A stretch of DNA of 64,000 nucleotides from an uncultured Bacilli bacterium (GTDB taxonomy: Bacteria; Bacillota_I; Bacilli_A; RF39; UBA660): the NCBI GenBank assembly GCA_947589735.1, contig CANQCR010000001.1, forward strand, positions 95,809 to 159,808, read 5' to 3'. Positions 1 through 42,280 of this stretch are shown piece after piece (position 1 is the first letter of the stretch; each line of letters begins with the position of its first letter). The position numbers were made by a program, and so were the translations under genes. The notes beneath the pieces are model-generated. The model had not been told where the DNA came from, did no database searches, and was given only the letters and a program-made list of their open reading frames with translations.

Positions 1-888
1 GATAAGAGATTGGGGATGTTCAATACGGACACCCATCGCAAAAGGTTTAGCTTCCATATGAAGATAATTATATAACATTTTAATTGTATCTCTAGCACTA
101 TGACCTAAAGCTAAAACTAAAATATCTGTAGCCATCCATTCGTTATGATTTACTTCTATCTCCTTTATTTTACCATCAATTACTTTAATATCGGTAAGAC
201 AAGTATTATATCTTATCTCACCACCATTTTTAATAATCTCTTCCCTCATACCTTTTACAATTTCACATAGCTTATCCGTTCCAATATGAGGTTTATTTTG
301 ATAGGCAATTTTAGCGTCAGCGCCATATTTAATAAAGGTATCAAAAATGAGATTACGTCTAAAATGACTATCTTTAATTCTAGAAAGAAGTTTACCATCA
401 GAAAATGTTCCGGCTCCCCCTTCACCAAATTGAACATTAGATTCGGTATTTAATGTGCCGTTATTCCAGAAGTTAGTAACATCGATAAGGCGTTCTTCAA
501 CTTTCTTACCGCGTTCGATAACGAGTGGGTTGTAACCATATTTTGAAAGAAGATAAGCACAAAATAATCCCGCCGGGCCCATTCCGACAATAACCGGATG
601 GTGGGTTAAAGTTTTCTTACCCACGACACTAAATACATATTCTTCTTTAGGCGCTAAAAGAACACTCGCACCTTTACTTCTTTTAAGTATTTCTTTTTCA
701 TTAAGAGCTTCAACATCAACGGTATAGACATAAACTAGTTTAGGTTTATGTCTAGCATCTAAAGATTCGTTTTTTATTTCATATCTTATAATATCTGCTT
801 CTTTAATTTTAAGTAGCTGAACTAGATGCTTTTTAATAGAACGAGTACCTTCTTCATAAGGTATTTTAATATCTTTTACTCTAATCAT
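1..888 (-). CDS. FAD-dependent oxidoreductase (COG2509-like), 3' end truncated by the window edge
   Basis: Not in the ORF track because it runs off the edge. Manual translation from ATG 888 gives MIRVKDIKIP...VIVGMGPAGLFCAY (GxGxxG), ERGKKV, NVQFGEGGAGTFSDGKL and PHIGTDKL. Overlaps the stop of the upstream gene. Confidence 0.85.
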   Translation of the reverse strand, partial: MIRVKDIKIPYEEGTRSIKKHLVQLLKIKEADIIRYEIKNESLDARHKPKLVYVYTVDVEALNEKEILKRSKGASVLLAPKEEYVFSVVGKKTLTHHPVIVGMGPAGLFCAYLLSKYGYNPLVIERGKKVEERLIDVTNFWNNGTLNTESNVQFGEGGAGTFSDGKLLSRIKDSHFRRNLIFDTFIKYGADAKIAYQNKPHIGTDKLCEIVKGMREEIIKNGGEIRYNTCLTDIKVIDGKIKEIEVNHNEWMATDILVLALGHSARDTIKMLYNYLHMEAKPFAMGVRIEHPQSLI

Positions 889-2092
889 GATATCCTCTTA
901 TACTTTTAGCAGCTAAGATAGCGCTAAGCCATACGAAGCCTAAATTATAGCCACCACACACGCCATCAACATCTAACATTTCACCGATTATATACAAGTC
1001 TTTTTGCTTTAAAGATTCCATTGTTAAAATGTTGATTTCATCTAAACTAACCCCACCGGAGCATACCTGAGCCGTATTAAAATCAGCATAGCCGGTAATT
1101 GGAACTTCAAAGCTTGTTAAATCATCGATGAGACTGTTTTTCTTTGAAGGCGTTAAAGTTGCATAAAAGCTATCATAACTAATCTTATTCTTCTTTAATA
1201 TGATATTACTAAGTTTATAATTGATTAGACTATCAAAGAAAGAAGAAATATTAAGATATGGTAGTTTATCACTTCTTTCATCAAGATAAGTTTTAGCGTC
1301 ATCGATAAAAGGTAGAAAATTAAGAATAACTTTAACATCTTTTTTATTAGTTAACTCTCTAATAGCTACACTACTTAAATTAAAAATAGGAATACCACTA
1401 ATGCCATTATCCGTAAGTTGTACTTCGCCACTTTCTTCTTGAAGTAAATTGTTACCGACATATAAGCTTGCTTTAGCATCAAGACGCACACCAGCCCAAT
1501 CTCTTAAATAAGGTAAGTTTGTAAAAAGAGGTGTCAAAGCTGGTAAAGGATTAATAAGGTGATGAAAAGGCTTAACTAAATTATAGCCATCACCATTAGA
1601 TCCTGTTTTAGGATAAGCTTTAGAACCGGTAGCAATAACAACCTTATCGGCTTCATACACGCCATCAGAGGTTTCTACATAAAACTTATCTTCATAGCGA
1701 ATATTTAAAACGGCAACGTCAGTTTTGATAACAACGCCACATGATATAGCTGCATTTAATAACGATTCTAAAACACTGACGGCTTGATTTGATCTAGGGT
1801 AATAATAACCCTTTTGAATTTTAGGGACAAGACCGATATCATCTAGAAAAGTTAAAACTTCTGCTTTATTTTTTTCTGTAATTATATCACCTAATAATTC
1901 TTTCTTTTTCGCGTGATAATAATTTACATCAAAATCTTCATTGAAGTAGTTGCACCTGCCATTACCGGTTAATAATAATTTTTTCCCGCAACGTGCATTT
2001 TTTTCTAAAATAGTAACTTCATTAGTATTATCTTTAGCTTTTATAGCGCAAGCAAGACCACTAGCTCCCCCACCAATAATAATTATTTTCAT
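881..2092 (-). CDS. HI0933/BaiN-family flavoprotein (NAD(P)/FAD-dependent oxidoreductase)
   Basis: IIIGGGASG, GKKLLLTGNGRCN, ATGSKAYPKTGSNGDGY, GEMLDVDGVCGGYNL. Start moved to ATG 2092, behind an AGGAGG RBS. Confidence 0.9.
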   Translation of the reverse strand: MKIIIIGGGASGLACAIKAKDNTNEVTILEKNARCGKKLLLTGNGRCNYFNEDFDVNYYHAKKKELLGDIITEKNKAEVLTFLDDIGLVPKIQKGYYYPRSNQAVSVLESLLNAAISCGVVIKTDVAVLNIRYEDKFYVETSDGVYEADKVVIATGSKAYPKTGSNGDGYNLVKPFHHLINPLPALTPLFTNLPYLRDWAGVRLDAKASLYVGNNLLQEESGEVQLTDNGISGIPIFNLSSVAIRELTNKKDVKVILNFLPFIDDAKTYLDERSDKLPYLNISSFFDSLINYKLSNIILKKNKISYDSFYATLTPSKKNSLIDDLTSFEVPITGYADFNTAQVCSGGVSLDEINILTMESLKQKDLYIIGEMLDVDGVCGGYNLGFVWLSAILAAKSIRGYHD

Positions 2093-2105
2093 TTTATCCT
2101 CCTTT

Positions 2106-4103
2106 TTATTCATAAATATATTGTTTTGAAGTATCATCATAATTATGTAGATATTCATTATCATAATTATAATCATTATACTCTTCATCTTCCATTTGAT
2201 AAAACCTCGTATGAACTAAGACAATCGGTAATGATAACTTTTTAGCCATCATTAAATCAAATGGGGTAATAACATCATAACAATATAGACACGATGGCTC
2301 TAAAAATGGATATCTCTTATAGACCGCGGAATCAAAGATACTATCACTTACTTCTTGATATAAAATCTCATTATATCTTCTTGTATGTTCGATTAGGTAT
2401 GCGGCCAAATAGATATCATTTATTTTATAAGTACCCGTACTATGATTAGAATATATTGAATAAGAATCAGCGTGATAAATATGAGCAATTCTCTTAGGAT
2501 CAAGATAATTGAATCCATAAGCGACATATTTTCTAACGGGACGAATGGTTGTTAATTTTTTACTGCTCACTAAAGATAGTGAATGTCCCGGTGGGATATG
2601 AGCGTCTATCGCATCATTAAAAAAGCGATGTGATTGGTTAAAAGGATGAAGGGCATCCTCGTCCCCTCTTTCTTCCCGCGTGACATGAACATAAAGATAG
2701 AACTCTTCACCTTTAAGATCGTAAATAGGGACATCTCCTTCAATGCGGGGTGTTAATAAATCTAGTCTTAACGTTTTTTGATTCATATCTTGATAAGCTA
2801 ATTCTTTAGCCATCTGATAATCATCATAAAAGTTTAAAACTAAATCTGGCGCTAATGCAAGAGAATGATAGAAGTTAACTTGGTCTTCTTTTTTCATATG
2901 CGGTAGATTGATAATATGATAATAAATCTCTAAACGTTTTTTAAAAGAGGTTAAGTCTTCTTTAGAAAGTGGAATAGCATCAAAAGAATAGGCATCATAA
3001 AACTGCATCATCATTTTTAAATTAGCTAAAAAATTATAAGGAATATCTTTAAAATAACGATCAATTAAAATAGGGCCAAGTATTTGCGCTAAAGAGACCT
3101 CACTAAAAGAAGATAATTCTAATGCATCAACACAAGTATCATCATACCTATCTCTTTTTTGTTCTAACTTTTCTGGATTAAAAGTTGGGGGTATTTCTTT
3201 TAAAGCATCTTTTACCTTTAAAAGTTCATCATACGTGTCATATCCGTTATCACTTAAATATACTAAAGCATTATATCTATGTGTTAAATTAATATATGAT
3301 GATTGCTCATAAGGAGATGTTAACACCCGCTCTAACACCATCCGGTATTTATTAATATCAGGAATTGTACTAATCTTTTCAATAAATAAAGAGTTAAAAG
3401 ATAAACTATCAGGAATAATTACAGAACTATCTATTAATCTTAAAATATCATCTAAAGGTAAATTAGCAAAATAACTTGTAAAAGGCTCTTTCCTAATTAA
3501 AAAGGAAATGGCCGTATTGGATAAATAATCAAAAATGTTAAGGTCTTGAGTTAGCCTGTAAAATTCATATATACCAATATTTTTAATTACTTCTATTTGA
3601 GCTTGCTCACCTAAATATTTAATTTTAATTATCTCTTTAGGAGATGATGATGAAATATAATCAAACAAGTTTTTTGCCCAAGTAAAAGACATATCATCAA
3701 TAAGACCATTTACATCATCTAAATGGTTAACAATATAAGGTAAATAGGATGTATCTTTTAAAGATATGCTTAAAAAATCATTATGACTTAATAAAATACT
3801 TGTTAAAATAACCCGGCGATACGGATGTTTATCGATACATTCTAAAAAAGATGCATTGAAAAAAAGAGCAATATCTTCTACCATCATATTATCTAGTAAC
3901 AAGCTTAATAAAGATGATGGATTATAAAGAGCAACTTTCAAATTTAAAGCCTCTTCTTTAACACTTAAACTTGTAAAAAAGCGCTGACGCTCGGCTGGCG
4001 CTAAAGAGGATAAAAAAGCTTTAGGATCTTTTTTAAAAGTTTCTAAAGAAGATATATTTATATCCTGTTTTGGTTTTGTTTCTAAAGTTGTATTCGTTTT
4101 CAT
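2106..4103 (-). CDS. Hypothetical 665-aa protein; helical N-terminal region, C-terminal candidate ADP-ribosyltransferase-like domain
   Basis: Long ORF with AGGAG RBS before ATG 4103. C-terminal LYVH...SLS...YGF...YNEI motif order. The function is speculative. Confidence 0.6.
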   Translation of the reverse strand: MKTNTTLETKPKQDINISSLETFKKDPKAFLSSLAPAERQRFFTSLSVKEEALNLKVALYNPSSLLSLLLDNMMVEDIALFFNASFLECIDKHPYRRVILTSILLSHNDFLSISLKDTSYLPYIVNHLDDVNGLIDDMSFTWAKNLFDYISSSSPKEIIKIKYLGEQAQIEVIKNIGIYEFYRLTQDLNIFDYLSNTAISFLIRKEPFTSYFANLPLDDILRLIDSSVIIPDSLSFNSLFIEKISTIPDINKYRMVLERVLTSPYEQSSYINLTHRYNALVYLSDNGYDTYDELLKVKDALKEIPPTFNPEKLEQKRDRYDDTCVDALELSSFSEVSLAQILGPILIDRYFKDIPYNFLANLKMMMQFYDAYSFDAIPLSKEDLTSFKKRLEIYYHIINLPHMKKEDQVNFYHSLALAPDLVLNFYDDYQMAKELAYQDMNQKTLRLDLLTPRIEGDVPIYDLKGEEFYLYVHVTREERGDEDALHPFNQSHRFFNDAIDAHIPPGHSLSLVSSKKLTTIRPVRKYVAYGFNYLDPKRIAHIYHADSYSIYSNHSTGTYKINDIYLAAYLIEHTRRYNEILYQEVSDSIFDSAVYKRYPFLEPSCLYCYDVITPFDLMMAKKLSLPIVLVHTRFYQMEDEEYNDYNYDNEYLHNYDDTSKQYIYE

Positions 4104-38088: not shown

Positions 38089-39459
38089 TTAGAACTTGAT
38101 TCTTTTGTTTATATAGTCAACTAATTCATCAACCTTAACAACTTCTTGAGCCATTGTATCGCGGTCTCTTACGGTAACCGTATTGTCATTTAAGGTATTA
38201 TCATCAACAGTAACACAGAATGGTGTTCCGGCGATATCTTGACGACGATAACGTTTACCAATTGATGCCGTCTCATCATAGATAGTCGTAAACTCTTTAG
38301 CTAGCATATCATATAATTCGTTAGCTTTCTCACTATGAAGTTTCTTATTAAGTGGGAAGATAGCTACTTTATATGGTGCTAAAAATGGATGAATCTTCAT
38401 AACTTCACGTGTCTCACCATTTTCTAATTCTTCCTCACAGTAAGCATTATCTAAAATAGCTAGCGCTAAACGATCAGCTCCGACAGTTGATTCAATGATA
38501 TATGGGATAAACTTTTCATTGGTCGTAGGATCTAGATATTCTTGGGATACACCAGAATATTCTTGGTGACGTGATAAGTCATAATCCGTTCTATTGTGGG
38601 TACCATTAATCTCACCCCAACCAAAACAGAAATCATATTCAATATCACAAGCTTCTTTAGCATAATGCGCTAACTTTTCATGATCATGATATCTTAGCTT
38701 TTCTTCAGGTAATCCTAAATCCATAAAGAATTTTTTAGCATATTCTTTGAAATAAGCATATAAGTCACTATCTGTACCCTCTTTACAGAAAGTTTGATAT
38801 TCCATTTGTTCAAACTCAATCGTTCTAAAAGTAAAGTTACCTGGTGTTATCTCATTACGGAAAGCTTTACCTACTTGACCAATACTAAATGGTAATTTTG
38901 TTCGCATTGATCTTTGAACATTTAAGAAATTGACATACTCACCTTGAGCATTTTCTGGTCTTAGGTAAACTTTATTTTTGCCATCTTCCGTAACACCACG
39001 ATGCGTTTCAAACATCAAATTGAATTGTCTAATATCAGTATAATCACTCTCACCACAGTTTGGGCAAGGAACTTTATGTTCCTTAACATAAGCCATCATT
39101 TCATCTTGACTCATACCATCAGCATGAGCATCAGGATCAAAATCATTGATTAAATTATCAACACGATGTCTTACTTTACAGTGCTTACAATCGATTAATG
39201 GGTCTGAGAAACTAGCTACGTGTCCACTTGCTTCCCATACTCTTGGATGCATAAGAATAGCGGCATCAACTTCATAGGCATTAGCTCTTTCTTGAATAAA
39301 ACGCTTCCGCCAAGCATCCTTAATATTATTTTTTAAACGACTTCCCAAAGGTCCATAGTCCCAAGTATTGGCAAGTCCACCATATATTTCACTTCCTTGA
39401 AATATAAAACCATATGTTTTACAAATGTTAACTAATTTGTCCATTGTTAATTTTTCCAT
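38089..39459 (-). CDS. glyS: Glycine--tRNA ligase (alpha2 homodimeric type)
   Basis: EIYGG..WDYGPLG, VWEASGH, YLRPENAQG, FRNEITPGNFTFR, SIGKRYRRQD; start at ATG 39459 behind AGGTGA. Confidence 0.95.
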   Translation of the reverse strand: MEKLTMDKLVNICKTYGFIFQGSEIYGGLANTWDYGPLGSRLKNNIKDAWRKRFIQERANAYEVDAAILMHPRVWEASGHVASFSDPLIDCKHCKVRHRVDNLINDFDPDAHADGMSQDEMMAYVKEHKVPCPNCGESDYTDIRQFNLMFETHRGVTEDGKNKVYLRPENAQGEYVNFLNVQRSMRTKLPFSIGQVGKAFRNEITPGNFTFRTIEFEQMEYQTFCKEGTDSDLYAYFKEYAKKFFMDLGLPEEKLRYHDHEKLAHYAKEACDIEYDFCFGWGEINGTHNRTDYDLSRHQEYSGVSQEYLDPTTNEKFIPYIIESTVGADRLALAILDNAYCEEELENGETREVMKIHPFLAPYKVAIFPLNKKLHSEKANELYDMLAKEFTTIYDETASIGKRYRRQDIAGTPFCVTVDDNTLNDNTVTVRDRDTMAQEVVKVDELVDYINKRIKF

Positions 39460-39513
39460 CTTTTTTCTCACCTTTCTATTAATTATTTCATCACTAATAT
39501 GATCACGTTATAA

Positions 39514-39633
39514 ATAAAAAAACTCCTAGAATGTATAGGGACGAAATATTCCGCGGTTCCACCCTACTTATTCTAGAAGAATCTCTTTATAGTATATTGC
39601 TCGAGGTTGCCAAGCCCGTCATCACAGCGATTA
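39514..39633 (-). ncRNA. T-box riboswitch (Gly), ultra-short form
   Basis: AGGGUGGAACCGCG...UUCGUCCCU antiterminator, terminator with U-tract, GGC specifier candidate, upstream of glyS. Confidence 0.85.
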
Positions 39634-39638
39634 ACTAG

Positions 39639-39667
39639 ATTTTAATACAAAGAATTAATTTTGTCAA
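39639..39667 (-). promoter_or_regulatory. SigA promoter for the glyS leader
   Basis: TTGACA-17-TAAAAT. Confidence 0.8.
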
Positions 39668-39674
39668 TAGGTAA

Positions 39675-40463
39675 TTATCTTTTTAACAAAGACATTACTT
39701 TAGCCTTAGCTTCAATCGTTTCAATATCCCCTTCAATACTTAAAGAGTGACCATGACTAGTAGCCATAAAAGTATTGTTATTATATTTTACATCATCAAA
39801 CATTCCATACATTTTAGCAAACACATCAATAAGAGTTAATATGTTAGCGATATCTTTAGGATCAGCTCCTTTTTCGGAATCTGTATCGGCGTAATAATAT
39901 AGACTATTTTTAGGCGCACGAGGTAAGACACTTTTCTCGCGGTCAAAATAAACAACCCGGCCTGGTTCCGTATAAGGTGTTGTATCAAAAGATATCAACA
40001 TATGATTTGTCTTACCCTTCATAAGTTTAGCTTTAGCAAATGTTAAAACGTCAACTTTACTGCGTTCATCTAAACTTGTAATCGTTCTTTTGAAGAAATC
40101 CATCGCACTATCAAGAAAATGAATCTCTAAATCACCAGCCCGAAAAGTATGACAAAAATCATGGGTTCTTTGAAAAGTTCTTGGTAAGTTTAGTGTTGTC
40201 GTTTTAATTGATGTTGTAATAGGTTCACTCCCAATATGAGCCACCATTAATTTATCGATGAACTCCGGATAAGAAGATGCAAAAGCATCAAGTAAAAAAC
40301 GTTTTGTCTTTTCATCAAATCCACTTTTCGCATTCCCTATCGTTTTAAAATGTAATTCTAGTTTTGATAACATTTCGCCATCTTTTTCCTTGTTCCGGGA
40401 AGTCACTATTAAATATTCTAATTTATTATTTAAAACCGTTGTTAAAAATTCTTCTCTTTTCAT
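39675..40463 (-). CDS. Hypothetical protein, paralog of the upstream neighbour
   Basis: About 262-aa ORF; shares LEYL, LP..F/Y.R..D.C and LID.F...YG.F with 40471-41256. Confidence 0.65.
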   Translation of the reverse strand: MKREEFLTTVLNNKLEYLIVTSRNKEKDGEMLSKLELHFKTIGNAKSGFDEKTKRFLLDAFASSYPEFIDKLMVAHIGSEPITTSIKTTTLNLPRTFQRTHDFCHTFRAGDLEIHFLDSAMDFFKRTITSLDERSKVDVLTFAKAKLMKGKTNHMLISFDTTPYTEPGRVVYFDREKSVLPRAPKNSLYYYADTDSEKGADPKDIANILTLIDVFAKMYGMFDDVKYNNNTFMATSHGHSLSIEGDIETIEAKAKVMSLLKR

Positions 40464-40470
40464 CATATAC

Positions 40471-41256
40471 CTACTTTCCTCGACCTAACGATAAAACTTT
40501 TTGATAAAGAGGATTCTCTTCACTAACCCCATCTAAGACAATTTTCTTTCCATATTCGTTACCAGCTTCAATCCACTTTTTTTCAAGAGTGTACCAATTA
40601 AATGGTCCATAAGTATCCCCAAATGTGTCAATAAGTTTAGAAGCATTTTCATTATCTAATTTAAGATTAGTTCCATAAATAGCATATTCAAGGGTTGCGG
40701 GACCGACATTATGATAAGTTGTTTGAAAAGGTTCACGTACACCAATCGTATGTCCTTTAATACTACTAACAACATCGTGATAGCCAATACTTAAAATACC
40801 AACATTATGACCATTGATAAGGAGTGTCCCATATCTTAAGGCATCACTTATGCTTTGACGATAAAGTCTTAAAATAATTTTCCGCATTCTTTGAATAGCT
40901 AAATCAGTAACATAAAGGGTAAACTGTTTCGTTTTAATTCTAATACACTGATCATAGAATCTAGCATAACGACTAGGTAAAAGTCTGGCATCACCTTCAA
41001 TCGCTTCCGTAATTAAATTGTTACCAAGATTGACATCAATTAATTCACTTAAAAAGTTTCTAGCGCCATCTTGATATTTATCCATTAAGCGTTCCGTATC
41101 CGTAAGAGGTAGTTTTTCAGCTGTATCTTTAAACGCATAATTGAAAGTAAAGCGTGTTCCTTCTTTGCCACGATAACGTTCGTCTTTCGCTTTAATCATT
41201 AAATATTCTAAAGGTAATGATGTTAAATGTTCTAATTTTTCTTCTTTTGTACTCAT
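40471..41256 (-). CDS. Hypothetical protein, paralog of the downstream neighbour
   Basis: 261-aa ORF, AGGAGG RBS, TTGACA-18-TAAAAT promoter. Confidence 0.65.
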   Translation of the reverse strand: MSTKEEKLEHLTSLPLEYLMIKAKDERYRGKEGTRFTFNYAFKDTAEKLPLTDTERLMDKYQDGARNFLSELIDVNLGNNLITEAIEGDARLLPSRYARFYDQCIRIKTKQFTLYVTDLAIQRMRKIILRLYRQSISDALRYGTLLINGHNVGILSIGYHDVVSSIKGHTIGVREPFQTTYHNVGPATLEYAIYGTNLKLDNENASKLIDTFGDTYGPFNWYTLEKKWIEAGNEYGKKIVLDGVSEENPLYQKVLSLGRGK

Positions 41257-41325: not shown

Positions 41326-42060
41326 TTAAATGTTTTTTAAACTATTTAGGAAACTCTTGCTTTTTAAATATAGCCCCGTATATCTTTCATAATAATTATT
41401 TAAAAAATCATTAATCTCACTAGTCGCTTCCGGGCTCACATCAATATTATCAATTTTATTGATATCAACATAGTAATACATTCTAATAAGTTTAATTGCT
41501 TTACTAGAAATGAGGGGTTCGGTTGTTCTACAATTAGCGCAAACATATCCCCCACGATCGCTTGATAAAGTAACAATATTATCTGTACTGCCACAATCGA
41601 CACAACGATCTAAAACCGGTAAGACACCTAAATTATCTAGATATTTAAGTTCTAAAATATTTGTTATAACAGCTGGGCTAAACCCTTCTTCAATCTTTGA
41701 TAAACTAGCGATTAAAAGATCAAAAACATCTTCATCACGTCCATGTCTAACCACCTGGGTGGCTAAATCCGTTAAATAGCTGGCATAACTGATAAGTTCA
41801 ATATCTTTTTTTATGTTGGTAAAATTATTAATGACACTAACATCTGATAAAATGGATAACTTATCTTTTTTATAGTAAACATTAAAAGTACCATAAGTAA
41901 GTTTACCGGATACACTTCTTAAAGGACTTTTTAAAGAACGTCCACCTTTAACCATTAACCCGATAATGCCATAATCTCTTGTCAGTAAATTAACAATTTT
42001 ACTTGTCTCACCATAATTTTGTTCACTTATAACGATACCATCAATTTTTTCAAGCATCAT
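41326..42060 (-). CDS. recO: DNA repair protein RecO
   Basis: YGETSKIV..LT...G, C..C / C..C zinc finger, YYERYTG..LKS. Confidence 0.92.
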   Translation of the reverse strand: MMLEKIDGIVISEQNYGETSKIVNLLTRDYGIIGLMVKGGRSLKSPLRSVSGKLTYGTFNVYYKKDKLSILSDVSVINNFTNIKKDIELISYASYLTDLATQVVRHGRDEDVFDLLIASLSKIEEGFSPAVITNILELKYLDNLGVLPVLDRCVDCGSTDNIVTLSSDRGGYVCANCRTTEPLISSKAIKLIRMYYYVDINKIDNIDVSPEATSEINDFLNNYYERYTGLYLKSKSFLNSLKNI

Positions 42061-42280
42061 CGTCAACTTCTTCAAAGCGATATTTTTGTTTTACATCAGG
42101 ATATTTTTCATGATCCACGGGCGAGGTAAACATATCATAAGGACGAACCCAAACTTCATCAGATCCTTGATGACGATAGATAACCATTTTTTCTAGGGTT
42201 TCTGAATGCTTACCAACCGCAATAACTTCCATAATGTCACCCTTAAAATGACGATACTTTTTTCCTGCTTTTACTTCCAT
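42050..42280 (-). CDS. DUF1653-family protein
   Basis: YRHFKG, HSETLE.MVIY, WVRPYDMF, KYP...QKYRF. Confidence 0.88.
   Translation of the reverse strand: MEVKAGKKYRHFKGDIMEVIAVGKHSETLEKMVIYRHQGSDEVWVRPYDMFTSPVDHEKYPDVKQKYRFEEVDDDA

Follow-up and report, generated by a model that had tools for sequence, protein, structure and literature searches.

A glyS leader of uncultured gut Bacilli as a probable minimal T-box attenuator with an ultrashort Stem I

Described T-box classes and the glyS leader

T-box leader RNAs are divided into four classes in PMC10482949, a source cited here, like PMC7583486 and PMC11404447, from the parts of its text that were available. Class I combines a long Stem I, an elbow platform and Stem II. 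Class II, which is specific for glycine, keeps the long Stem I and the platform and has no Stem II. Class III has a short Stem I with the Specifier in its apical loop, requires Stem II and is mostly translational, while Class IV is intermediate. The platform, Stem II or the two together augment the binding of tRNA (PMC10482949). Transcriptional T-boxes generally require the elbow platform, since binding must be fast, and in the absence of Stem II a truncated Stem I hardly binds tRNA (PMC7583486). Here we describe the leader of glyS, a gene for glycyl-tRNA synthetase (GlyRS), in a window of 64,000 nucleotides (nt) from contig CANQCR010000001.1 of an uncultured Bacilli bacterium; the window is the whole stretch of DNA that was analysed. 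The leader is about 117 nt long and occupies 39516-39632 of the minus strand, flanked by a promoter-like site and glyS. Judged from its sequence, it joins a Class III-type Stem I to the Class II lack of Stem II and to transcriptional control, and so falls outside all four classes; by its discriminator, Specifier and K-turn it is still a T-box. We consider it to be a functional tRNA-Gly-sensing transcription attenuator of the T-box family with a minimal architecture, at a probability of roughly 0.78.

As in the Class II leaders of glyQS (Bacillus subtilis, Geobacillus kaustophilus), a glycine Specifier is followed by a purine, a K-turn lies at the base of Stem I, and GlyRS is controlled via a hairpin and a U-run. 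A single-stranded linker likewise stands in place of Stem II, and the UGGA discriminator fits U73. What is absent here is the long Stem I of Class II with its AG bulge and distal double T-loop platform, which stacks on the tRNA elbow. In contrast to Class II, the Specifier lies in an apical and not in an internal loop, and it is preceded by U instead of the S-turn GAA of known glycine T-boxes (PMC11404447). The 5′ strand of the terminator is Stem III here, whereas in Class II it is formed by the 3′ strands of helices A1 and A2.

With Class III, as the available sources present it (ileS of Actinobacteria, in Nocardia farcinica and Mycobacterium), the leader shares a short Stem I without platform and a Specifier in a small apical loop. 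Yet Class III leaders need the Stem II S-turn, which clamps the codon-anticodon helix, and the IIA/B pseudoknot; in the glyS leader neither is present and there is no sequence to form them. In addition, Class III is translational and specific for isoleucine in Actinobacteria, whereas the glyS leader has a terminator hairpin with seven U residues (U7), a glycine Specifier and a host in a Bacilli lineage. Class III ultrashort Stem I T-boxes were reportedly first described by Sherwood et al. in 2015.

An earlier reading of this DNA from its letters only, called here the sequence-only reading, had noted the missing elbow platform, the missing Stem II and a retained hairpin with a U-run, all of which our analysis bears out. 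Its proposal of an undescribed minimal T-box class is supported as an interpretation. The word undescribed comes from a non-exhaustive search of partly available literature in which, TBDB leaders with truncated Stem I aside, neither a transcriptional T-box with no platform and no Stem II nor a Stem III-based terminator was described. The elements of the leader are as follows.

39639..39667, minus strand: promoter-like site TTGACA-17-TAAAAT (TTGACA 39667-39662, TAAAAT 39644-39639), matching the consensus at 11 of 12 positions
39598..39626, minus strand: ultrashort Stem I with a C-stem of 3 base pairs (bp), a GA (K-turn-like) motif, a 3-bp helix and the 8-nt apical loop CUUGGCAA (sequence and covariation)
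U39626-G-U39624 with G39600-C-A39598, minus strand: C-stem (sequence)
39623-39621, minus strand: GAU bulge (sequence)
39620-39619 opposite 39602-39601, minus strand: GA/GA, K-turn-like (sequence)
C39618/C39603, minus strand: C/C mismatch (sequence)
G39617-G39615 with C39606-U39604, minus strand: upper helix GGG/CCU (comparative)
C39614-A39607, minus strand: apical loop CUUGGCAA, 8 nt (sequence)
39609..39611, minus strand: Specifier GGC (Gly), with U39612 before and A39608 after it
39583..39597, minus strand: single-stranded linker of 15-16 nt with the conserved WAUAUA, ending in the purine string AAGAG (RRRxG) (alignments)
39570..39582, minus strand: Stem III (AUUCU-UCU-AGAAU), then AA; −1.2 kcal/mol, 92.1% of alignment cells paired
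39536..39566, minus strand: T-box element with A1 (UAGGG/CCCUA), bulge UGGAACC (39561-39555) and A2 with a basal G-U pair (high posterior in the Rfam alignment)
39516..39532, minus strand: terminator 3′ strand AUUCUAGGAG (39532-39523), then U7 (39522-39516) (folds and covariation)

Conservation of the Specifier, discriminator and terminator

A covariance model, R1, was built from 10 short leaders and used to search related genomes. At E≤1e-9 it matched 108 of 151 genomes of the order, all in one family, f1, of uncultured gut Bacilli of about 1 Mb (107/149 for f1; 0/1 for f2). At E≤1e-3 there were matches in 149 of the 151 family genomes, sampled as one per genus, a count that includes hits to the 3′ halves of other T-boxes. 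In a class-wide sample, R1 matched 12 of 13 f1 genomes vs. 2 of 137 outside the family. Both outside hits scored about 50 bits and neither is a short form: one is a long-form glycine T-box, while the other has a UGGU bulge and precedes an open reading frame (ORF) that we take to be TyrRS-like. Reading from the gene side, GlyRS was found in all 41 related genomes, and the 300 nt upstream were read at 30 loci. Eleven of these carried a short leader, three, from other families, a long Stem I glycine T-box, and 16 had nothing directly upstream. Among the 16, an ORF separates the short leader from glyS, some 0.8-0.9 kb downstream, in 11 same-genus genomes; one more has a variant with an A2 insertion, and four gave no match.

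In total 129 leaders were collected, all of distinct sequence: 100 from the main alignment and 29 of the 32 rows of a further one, from which L030, L041 and L043 were dropped as long-form or partial. Results showed that the loop holds U-GGN in every one of them, with GGA in 95, GGC in 30, GGU in two and GGG in two. Of these, 125 were parsed by script (GGA 92, GGC 29, GGU 2, GGG 2) and four were read by eye (GGA 3, GGC 1). When one leader per genus was kept (112 leaders), the counts were GGA 94, GGC 14, GGG 2 and GGU 2. The triplet is preceded by U in all 125 parsed leaders and followed by A in 128 of the 129, the remaining leader (L149) having U after GGA; in the 125 parsed leaders this A was required by the search pattern. 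A fixed GG with a free third base is the pattern that a glycine codon predicts. The sequence-only reading had named as a possible refutation that the loop triplet does not track the amino acid; a glycine codon with a variable third position was found throughout. Its placement of GGC at 39611-39609, followed by A, also holds. For the apical loop it had given GCUUGGCAA, which rightly has GGC inside and wrongly takes in the last G of the helix, as the comparative helix is GGG/CCU and the loop CUUGGCAA.

The hairpin that carries this loop varies in sequence and keeps its pairing. In relatives the upper helix of Stem I has 3-5 bp and the loop 7-8 nt, and 79 distinct Stem I helix sequences occur among the 125 parsed leaders. 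In the 100-leader alignment, two inner helix pairs were GC76/AU21 and GC75/AU12/UA5/CG2/UG3, and the third C-stem pair was UA57/AU34/GC2. Over the whole model, standard pairs filled 95.7% of the cells of this alignment, vs. 82.1% after shuffling and 40-52% with the partners slid, and 23 of the 25 model pairs change on both sides. Because the alignment was fitted to the model it favours the structure; nevertheless the structure is borne out by the slid controls and by an independent scan of mutual information. The top 20 column pairs of that scan comprised 14 model pairs, four direct helix extensions and two adjacent columns. These data suggest that clear selection has maintained the leader across more than 100 genera.

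The 3′ half of the leader carries the T-box proper. Pairing in the 100 leaders reached 99.8% for A1 and 98.2% for A2, with compensatory changes, and the bulge UGGAACC is present in 100/100. The basal pair of A2 is G-U in 87 leaders, G-C in eight and A-U in five. A discriminator motif, RRRxG-Stem III-AA, has been defined in PMC7583486, and AAGAG-AUUCUUCUAGAAU-AA in the glyS leader matches it. According to the same source, in its available part, an antiterminator without Stem III shows no appreciable tRNA binding (PMC7583486). The linker ahead of this motif is about 16 nt long, equal to that of long-form relatives. Within it, WAUAUA is strongly conserved in the short leaders and absent from the long-form relatives that were read. 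Extra tertiary pairs from WAUAUA were considered and rejected, as the mutual-information scan gave no covarying partner for it beyond the modelled helices and their extensions.

We identified 39 tRNAs in the host genome, among them tRNA-Gly(GCC) with U73, a tRNA-Gly(UCC) with U73 and a second UCC gene with C73. The bulge UGGA had been said to match the U73 discriminator base of tRNA-Gly; it is complementary to U73-C-C-A of tRNA-Gly(GCC) and of one of the two tRNA-Gly(UCC). The second tRNA-Gly(UCC), on contig C6 (80108-80181, minus strand) and thus outside the window, has an AU-rich acceptor stem and, with its C73, a mismatch to the UGGA bulge. The Specifier loop contains UUGGCAA, complementary at seven positions to UUGCCAA, the anticodon loop of tRNA-Gly(GCC). 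Since only U, GGN and A are conserved in relatives, the general contacts would amount to at most about five. In a survey that covered tRNA-Gly(GCC) only, this tRNA was detected (E≤1e-8) in the genomes of 11 of 14 GGC-type vs. 45 of 94 GGA-type leaders, and all 20 hits that were fetched were GCC according to ARAGORN. As the genomes are related and incomplete, this lends weak support, in the expected direction, to a match between Specifier type and tRNA gene.

The terminator is of an unusual build. In folds, CUUCUAGAAU (39579-39570), which is the loop and 3′ half of Stem III, pairs with AUUCUAGGAG (39532-39523), and the resulting 10-bp helix encloses A1/A2 directly ahead of the U-run. In this base helix both partners change at all 10 pairs, several of which are placed high by the mutual-information scan. 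By nearest-neighbour energies the terminator form reaches −19.6 kcal/mol vs. −8.8 kcal/mol for Stem III together with A1 and A2. A hairpin of the textbook type, using the 3′ strand of A1, would have just 4 bp (CCUA/UAGG, by eye), so that the 5′ strand is not, as is conventional, made of the 3′ strands of A1/A2. The available text of PMC7583486 describes only terminators built from the 3′ strands of A1 and A2.

Terminators that enclose A1/A2 were also seen in other leaders of the lineage. Among nine further leaders of the same genome that were classified, five are of this kind (L002, L004, L007, L009, L011) and four are conventional. By eye, the terminator encloses A1/A2 as well in all 20 secondary hits of the model to other genomes of the family (L314-L333), a count biased by the model, which holds the helix. 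Many T-boxes of the family that share this build have a normal Stem I, and they cover several amino acids. For the 26 top-scoring T-boxes from other families of the class, a script called 21 conventional and five enclosing; by eye only L271 is truly enclosing, and the other four are early U-runs.

A promoter directly ahead of the leader bears on the length of Stem I. The sequence-only reading had proposed the TTGACA-17-TAAAAT site with a start near 39632, and the position of the −10 element indeed places the probable transcription start there. In a 1-kb scan, three promoter-like sites were seen vs. 4.2 expected, so the site by itself is not significant; it is the conserved position in relatives, rather than the single site, that argues for a promoter. 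A match to at least 9 of 12 positions was found in 92 of 100 relatives' leaders, within 88 nt each (80 nt upstream plus the first 8 nt of the model), where the 1-kb scan would let one expect about 0.2 such matches per window by chance. In 51 of those 92 the −10 element ends 13-15 nt before the G of GAUGA, with a mode of 14. This position predicts that only a few nucleotides precede the C-stem and that a longer Stem I has no room. From the putative start to the T-box sequence there are about 65 nt, of which Stem I takes 29 nt. A start far upstream, giving a full Stem I, had been named as one possible refutation of the proposal and appears unlikely on these counts. The candidate that a full Stem I lies hidden in the upstream ORF was rejected, because a forced Rfam alignment there had low posterior. 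It is also disfavoured by the upstream DNA, which varies by genus (recO, ORFs of unknown family, other genes).

Searching the whole window with Rfam RF00230 at its gathering score gave no match. A permissive search returned the leader at 47.1 bits (E 3e-9), about half of the gathering score, with high posterior confined to A1/A2, the T-box sequence and the flank of Stem III, and with the short hairpin treated as an insertion. Only a 3′ partial hit had been expected, and the same held more widely: RF00230 reached its cut-off in 0 of the 16 short leaders scanned, while three of four long-form glycine leaders scanned were also below it. Regulation of glyS in this large gut lineage has thus probably been missed by annotation that relies on the cut-off.

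Proposed switch and alternative explanations

In the mechanism that we propose, the promoter would start the RNA a few bases before the K-turn-like motif. Stem I would consist of the proximal helix only, its loop presenting U-GGN-A, with the elbow platform and everything above the Specifier loop gone. The anticodon of tRNA-Gly would pair with GGC, and the flanking U and A could add pairs or stacking with A37 and U33. UGGA would pair with the UCCA end of uncharged tRNA-Gly. By default, the downstream repeat of the Stem III 5′ strand would invade Stem III, yielding the 10-bp helix under A1/A2 followed by U7, and transcription would stop. Uncharged tRNA would instead lock Stem III, the purine string and A1/A2 together, in which case Stem III would not be unzipped and glyS would be transcribed. 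Unzipping of Stem III by the terminator and its retention by the tRNA should be mutually exclusive, because an antiterminator without Stem III binds tRNA poorly. The binding of tRNA, the choice between charged and uncharged forms and the competition of Stem III with the terminator are steps that we infer.

A bolder form of this view would make the leader a fifth T-box architecture, using only the anticodon/Specifier-loop and NCCA contacts, with no helper, and a terminator that competes with Stem III and not with A1/A2. We hold the chances of this stronger claim to be even. The flanking U and A would then possibly extend the pairing to four or five, like a loop-loop kissing complex, and the tRNA is proposed to protect Stem III rather than an 'antiterminator'.

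Several observations weigh against a functional minimal T-box. The Rfam score quoted above stands far from the cut-off of 93. The 3-bp helix of Stem I contributes −1.1 kcal/mol and is weak alone. The isolated 51-nt 5′ part folds no better than its shuffles (z −0.41; 59 of 200 as good), and in its minimum-energy fold GGC is buried by the pairing of GCUUGG with UCGAGC. Given the requirement for platform or Stem II in PMC7583486, as far as that text was available, affinity may be too low without other help. Stem III is almost invariant in the alignment, hence without support from covariation, and the hairpin is absent in two leaders, L145 and L152, which for this reason do not fit the proposed switch. 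No strong R1 match was found in 42 of the 149 sampled family genomes, and ten hit-less family genomes, when read over the 1.4 kb ahead of glyS, held no real T-box (seven showed no motif, two had chance motif matches in coding sequence, and one held a decayed leader missed by the motif search). Finally, three of the 14 genomes with GGC-type leaders, at 64, 93 and 94% completeness, gave no detected tRNA-Gly(GCC).

The weakness of Stem I could be met by assistance. In this case the T-box would be functional but would depend on an L7Ae-type K-turn-binding protein, or on some other factor, to stabilise Stem I or to bridge it to the tRNA. In Bacillus, the K-turns of T-boxes are bound by L7Ae homologues. 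Across the leaders, no part of Stem I is better conserved than the K-turn-like motif, and the helix above this motif is too short for stability alone. However, no candidate for such a helper was found, though no search for L7Ae homologues was made. The neighbouring ORFs were considered as a family-wide protein partner and rejected, since these ORFs of unknown family beside the leader have homologues in just 12 of the 129 loci, all of the same genus. We regard dependence on a helper as improbable.

A vestigial T-box would account for the same weakness in another way: Stem I would have been deleted and tRNA sensing lost, leaving a constitutive leaky terminator or one regulated otherwise. The available part of PMC7583486 calls the platform essential in transcriptional T-boxes, the Stem I hairpin is thermodynamically marginal, and the family appears to be losing T-boxes, as 0 of the 10 hit-less genomes had a real T-box near glyS and one had a decayed leader. 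Yet a dead element would not keep U-GGN in 129/129 leaders, UGGAACC in 100/100, the G-U pair in 87/100 and compensation at 23 of 25 pairs across more than 100 genera. The sole clearly decayed leader lost exactly those features, and we think it decidedly unlikely that the glyS leader is such a remnant. That decayed glyS leader, L289 in genome G193, has no Stem I and reads CAGAAUC in the bulge instead of UGGAACC, while it retains the promoter, a Stem III-like region, the hairpin and the U-run. By its sequence it appears to show what loss of function looks like, unlike the conserved leaders.

It is very improbable that the loop is not a Specifier, serving some other purpose while the discriminator alone senses any uncharged U73 tRNA: the loop offers only about 3-5 possible anticodon-loop pairs with no second Stem I contact, but GG never changes while all four bases occur at the third position, U and the pattern-required A flank the triplet in 125/125 parsed leaders, homology ties the loop to the 3′ side of a long-form relative's Specifier loop, and in the available text of PMC7583486 the antiterminator without Stem III, a construct short of the full discriminator, did not bind tRNA appreciably.

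If the leader is a functional minimal T-box, as we favour, a leader that has neither platform nor Stem II and is yet selected in more than 100 genera would challenge the rule of reinforcement drawn from the available parts of PMC10482949 and PMC7583486. At 117 nt it would offer a natural minimal system for asking what co-transcriptional capture of tRNA needs. A Stem III-based terminator, if confirmed, would mean that the discriminator itself can be the switching element, and a minimal tRNA-sensing module would be attractive for engineering.

Gene context, probable origin and other T-boxes

The downstream gene, already read as glyS from the letters, matches the dimeric-type GlyRS family.

38089..39471, minus strand: glyS, dimeric-type glycine--tRNA ligase (NCBIfam NF003211, 625.5 bits; Pfam tRNA-synt_2b and HGTP_anticodon)

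Its longest ORF begins at GTG 39471; ATG 39459, with AAAGGTGAG in front, is the more likely start. The U7 end of the leader lies about 45-55 nt ahead of glyS. Upstream of the leader are recO (41326-42075) and two ORFs of unknown family (39675-40466 and 40471-41256, minus strand). The latter, situated between recO and the leader, are diverged paralogues of 263 and 261 amino acids (aa) with 23% identity, and neither has a match in Pfam or NCBIfam. In the same-genus genomes one ORF of this paralogous kind sits between the leader and glyS.

Across the 100 aligned leaders, GlyRS follows within 700 nt in 86. Reading of the first downstream ORF showed a different gene coming first at 18 loci. These intervening genes include ORFs of about 230-260 aa of unknown family and ProRS; others are, judging by motifs, presumably a LOG-like protein of about 180 aa and a protein of about 290 aa. 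In L251 (genome G083, 218-3766) the leader, proS, an ORF and glyS form an operon, where ProRS would be under tRNA-Gly control. A ProRS-like ORF also comes first after L074 (genome G123).

The likely origin of the short form is suggested by a member of the family, genome G080, which carries a full-length glycine T-box, a normal Class II leader (L170, 1436-1593; Rfam 65.8 bits). In its alignment Stem I, the AG bulge and the distal loop have high posterior, and the Stem II positions are deleted. The flanks of L170 (AAAGCGAUGACG ... AAGAGCGAUUA) agree closely with those seen in L035 and some other short leaders, and the short-leader flanks GCGAUGA...GAGC are the ones that Rfam aligns to the base of Stem I in L170. 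On this match the short form looks like a deletion of all that lies above the Specifier loop, by which the internal loop became a hairpin loop. L170 is thus likely to picture the ancestral state. Where a close GlyRS occurs in a named record, the record is a metagenome-assembled genome that carries the label uncultured Bacilli, Tenericutes, Mollicutes or Erysipelotrichaceae. Candidatus Faecimonas, Onthousia and Faecenecus are among these records; for the two that were looked up, Faecimonas and Onthousia, NCBI gives a place in Bacilli incertae sedis.

The host genome (1.44 Mb in 26 contigs) contains 11 other T-boxes, which score 76-141 bits over the full model, eight of them above the cut-off, and one further weak match of 14.6 bits. 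As these other T-boxes of the organism are ordinary and full-length, the glyS leader is the odd one. No second class with a short Stem I was present in this genome, all 11 other strong T-boxes being full-length. Short-Stem-I T-boxes for other amino acids were also sought among 20 secondary R1 hits and rejected, since the hits are 3′ parts of other leaders, most of which have Stem I distal-loop motifs upstream. From their N-terminal sequences, we take the genes that follow to be IleRS-, PheRS-, HisRS-like and others. One leader, L321 (genome G079, 920-1041, minus strand), differs from the rest. It has a UGGC bulge, all 92 Stem I positions are deleted in its Rfam alignment, where the hairpin that is left falls on Stem II, and the following gene is presumably HisRS-like; L321 may be a T-box truncated in another way, or one in decay.

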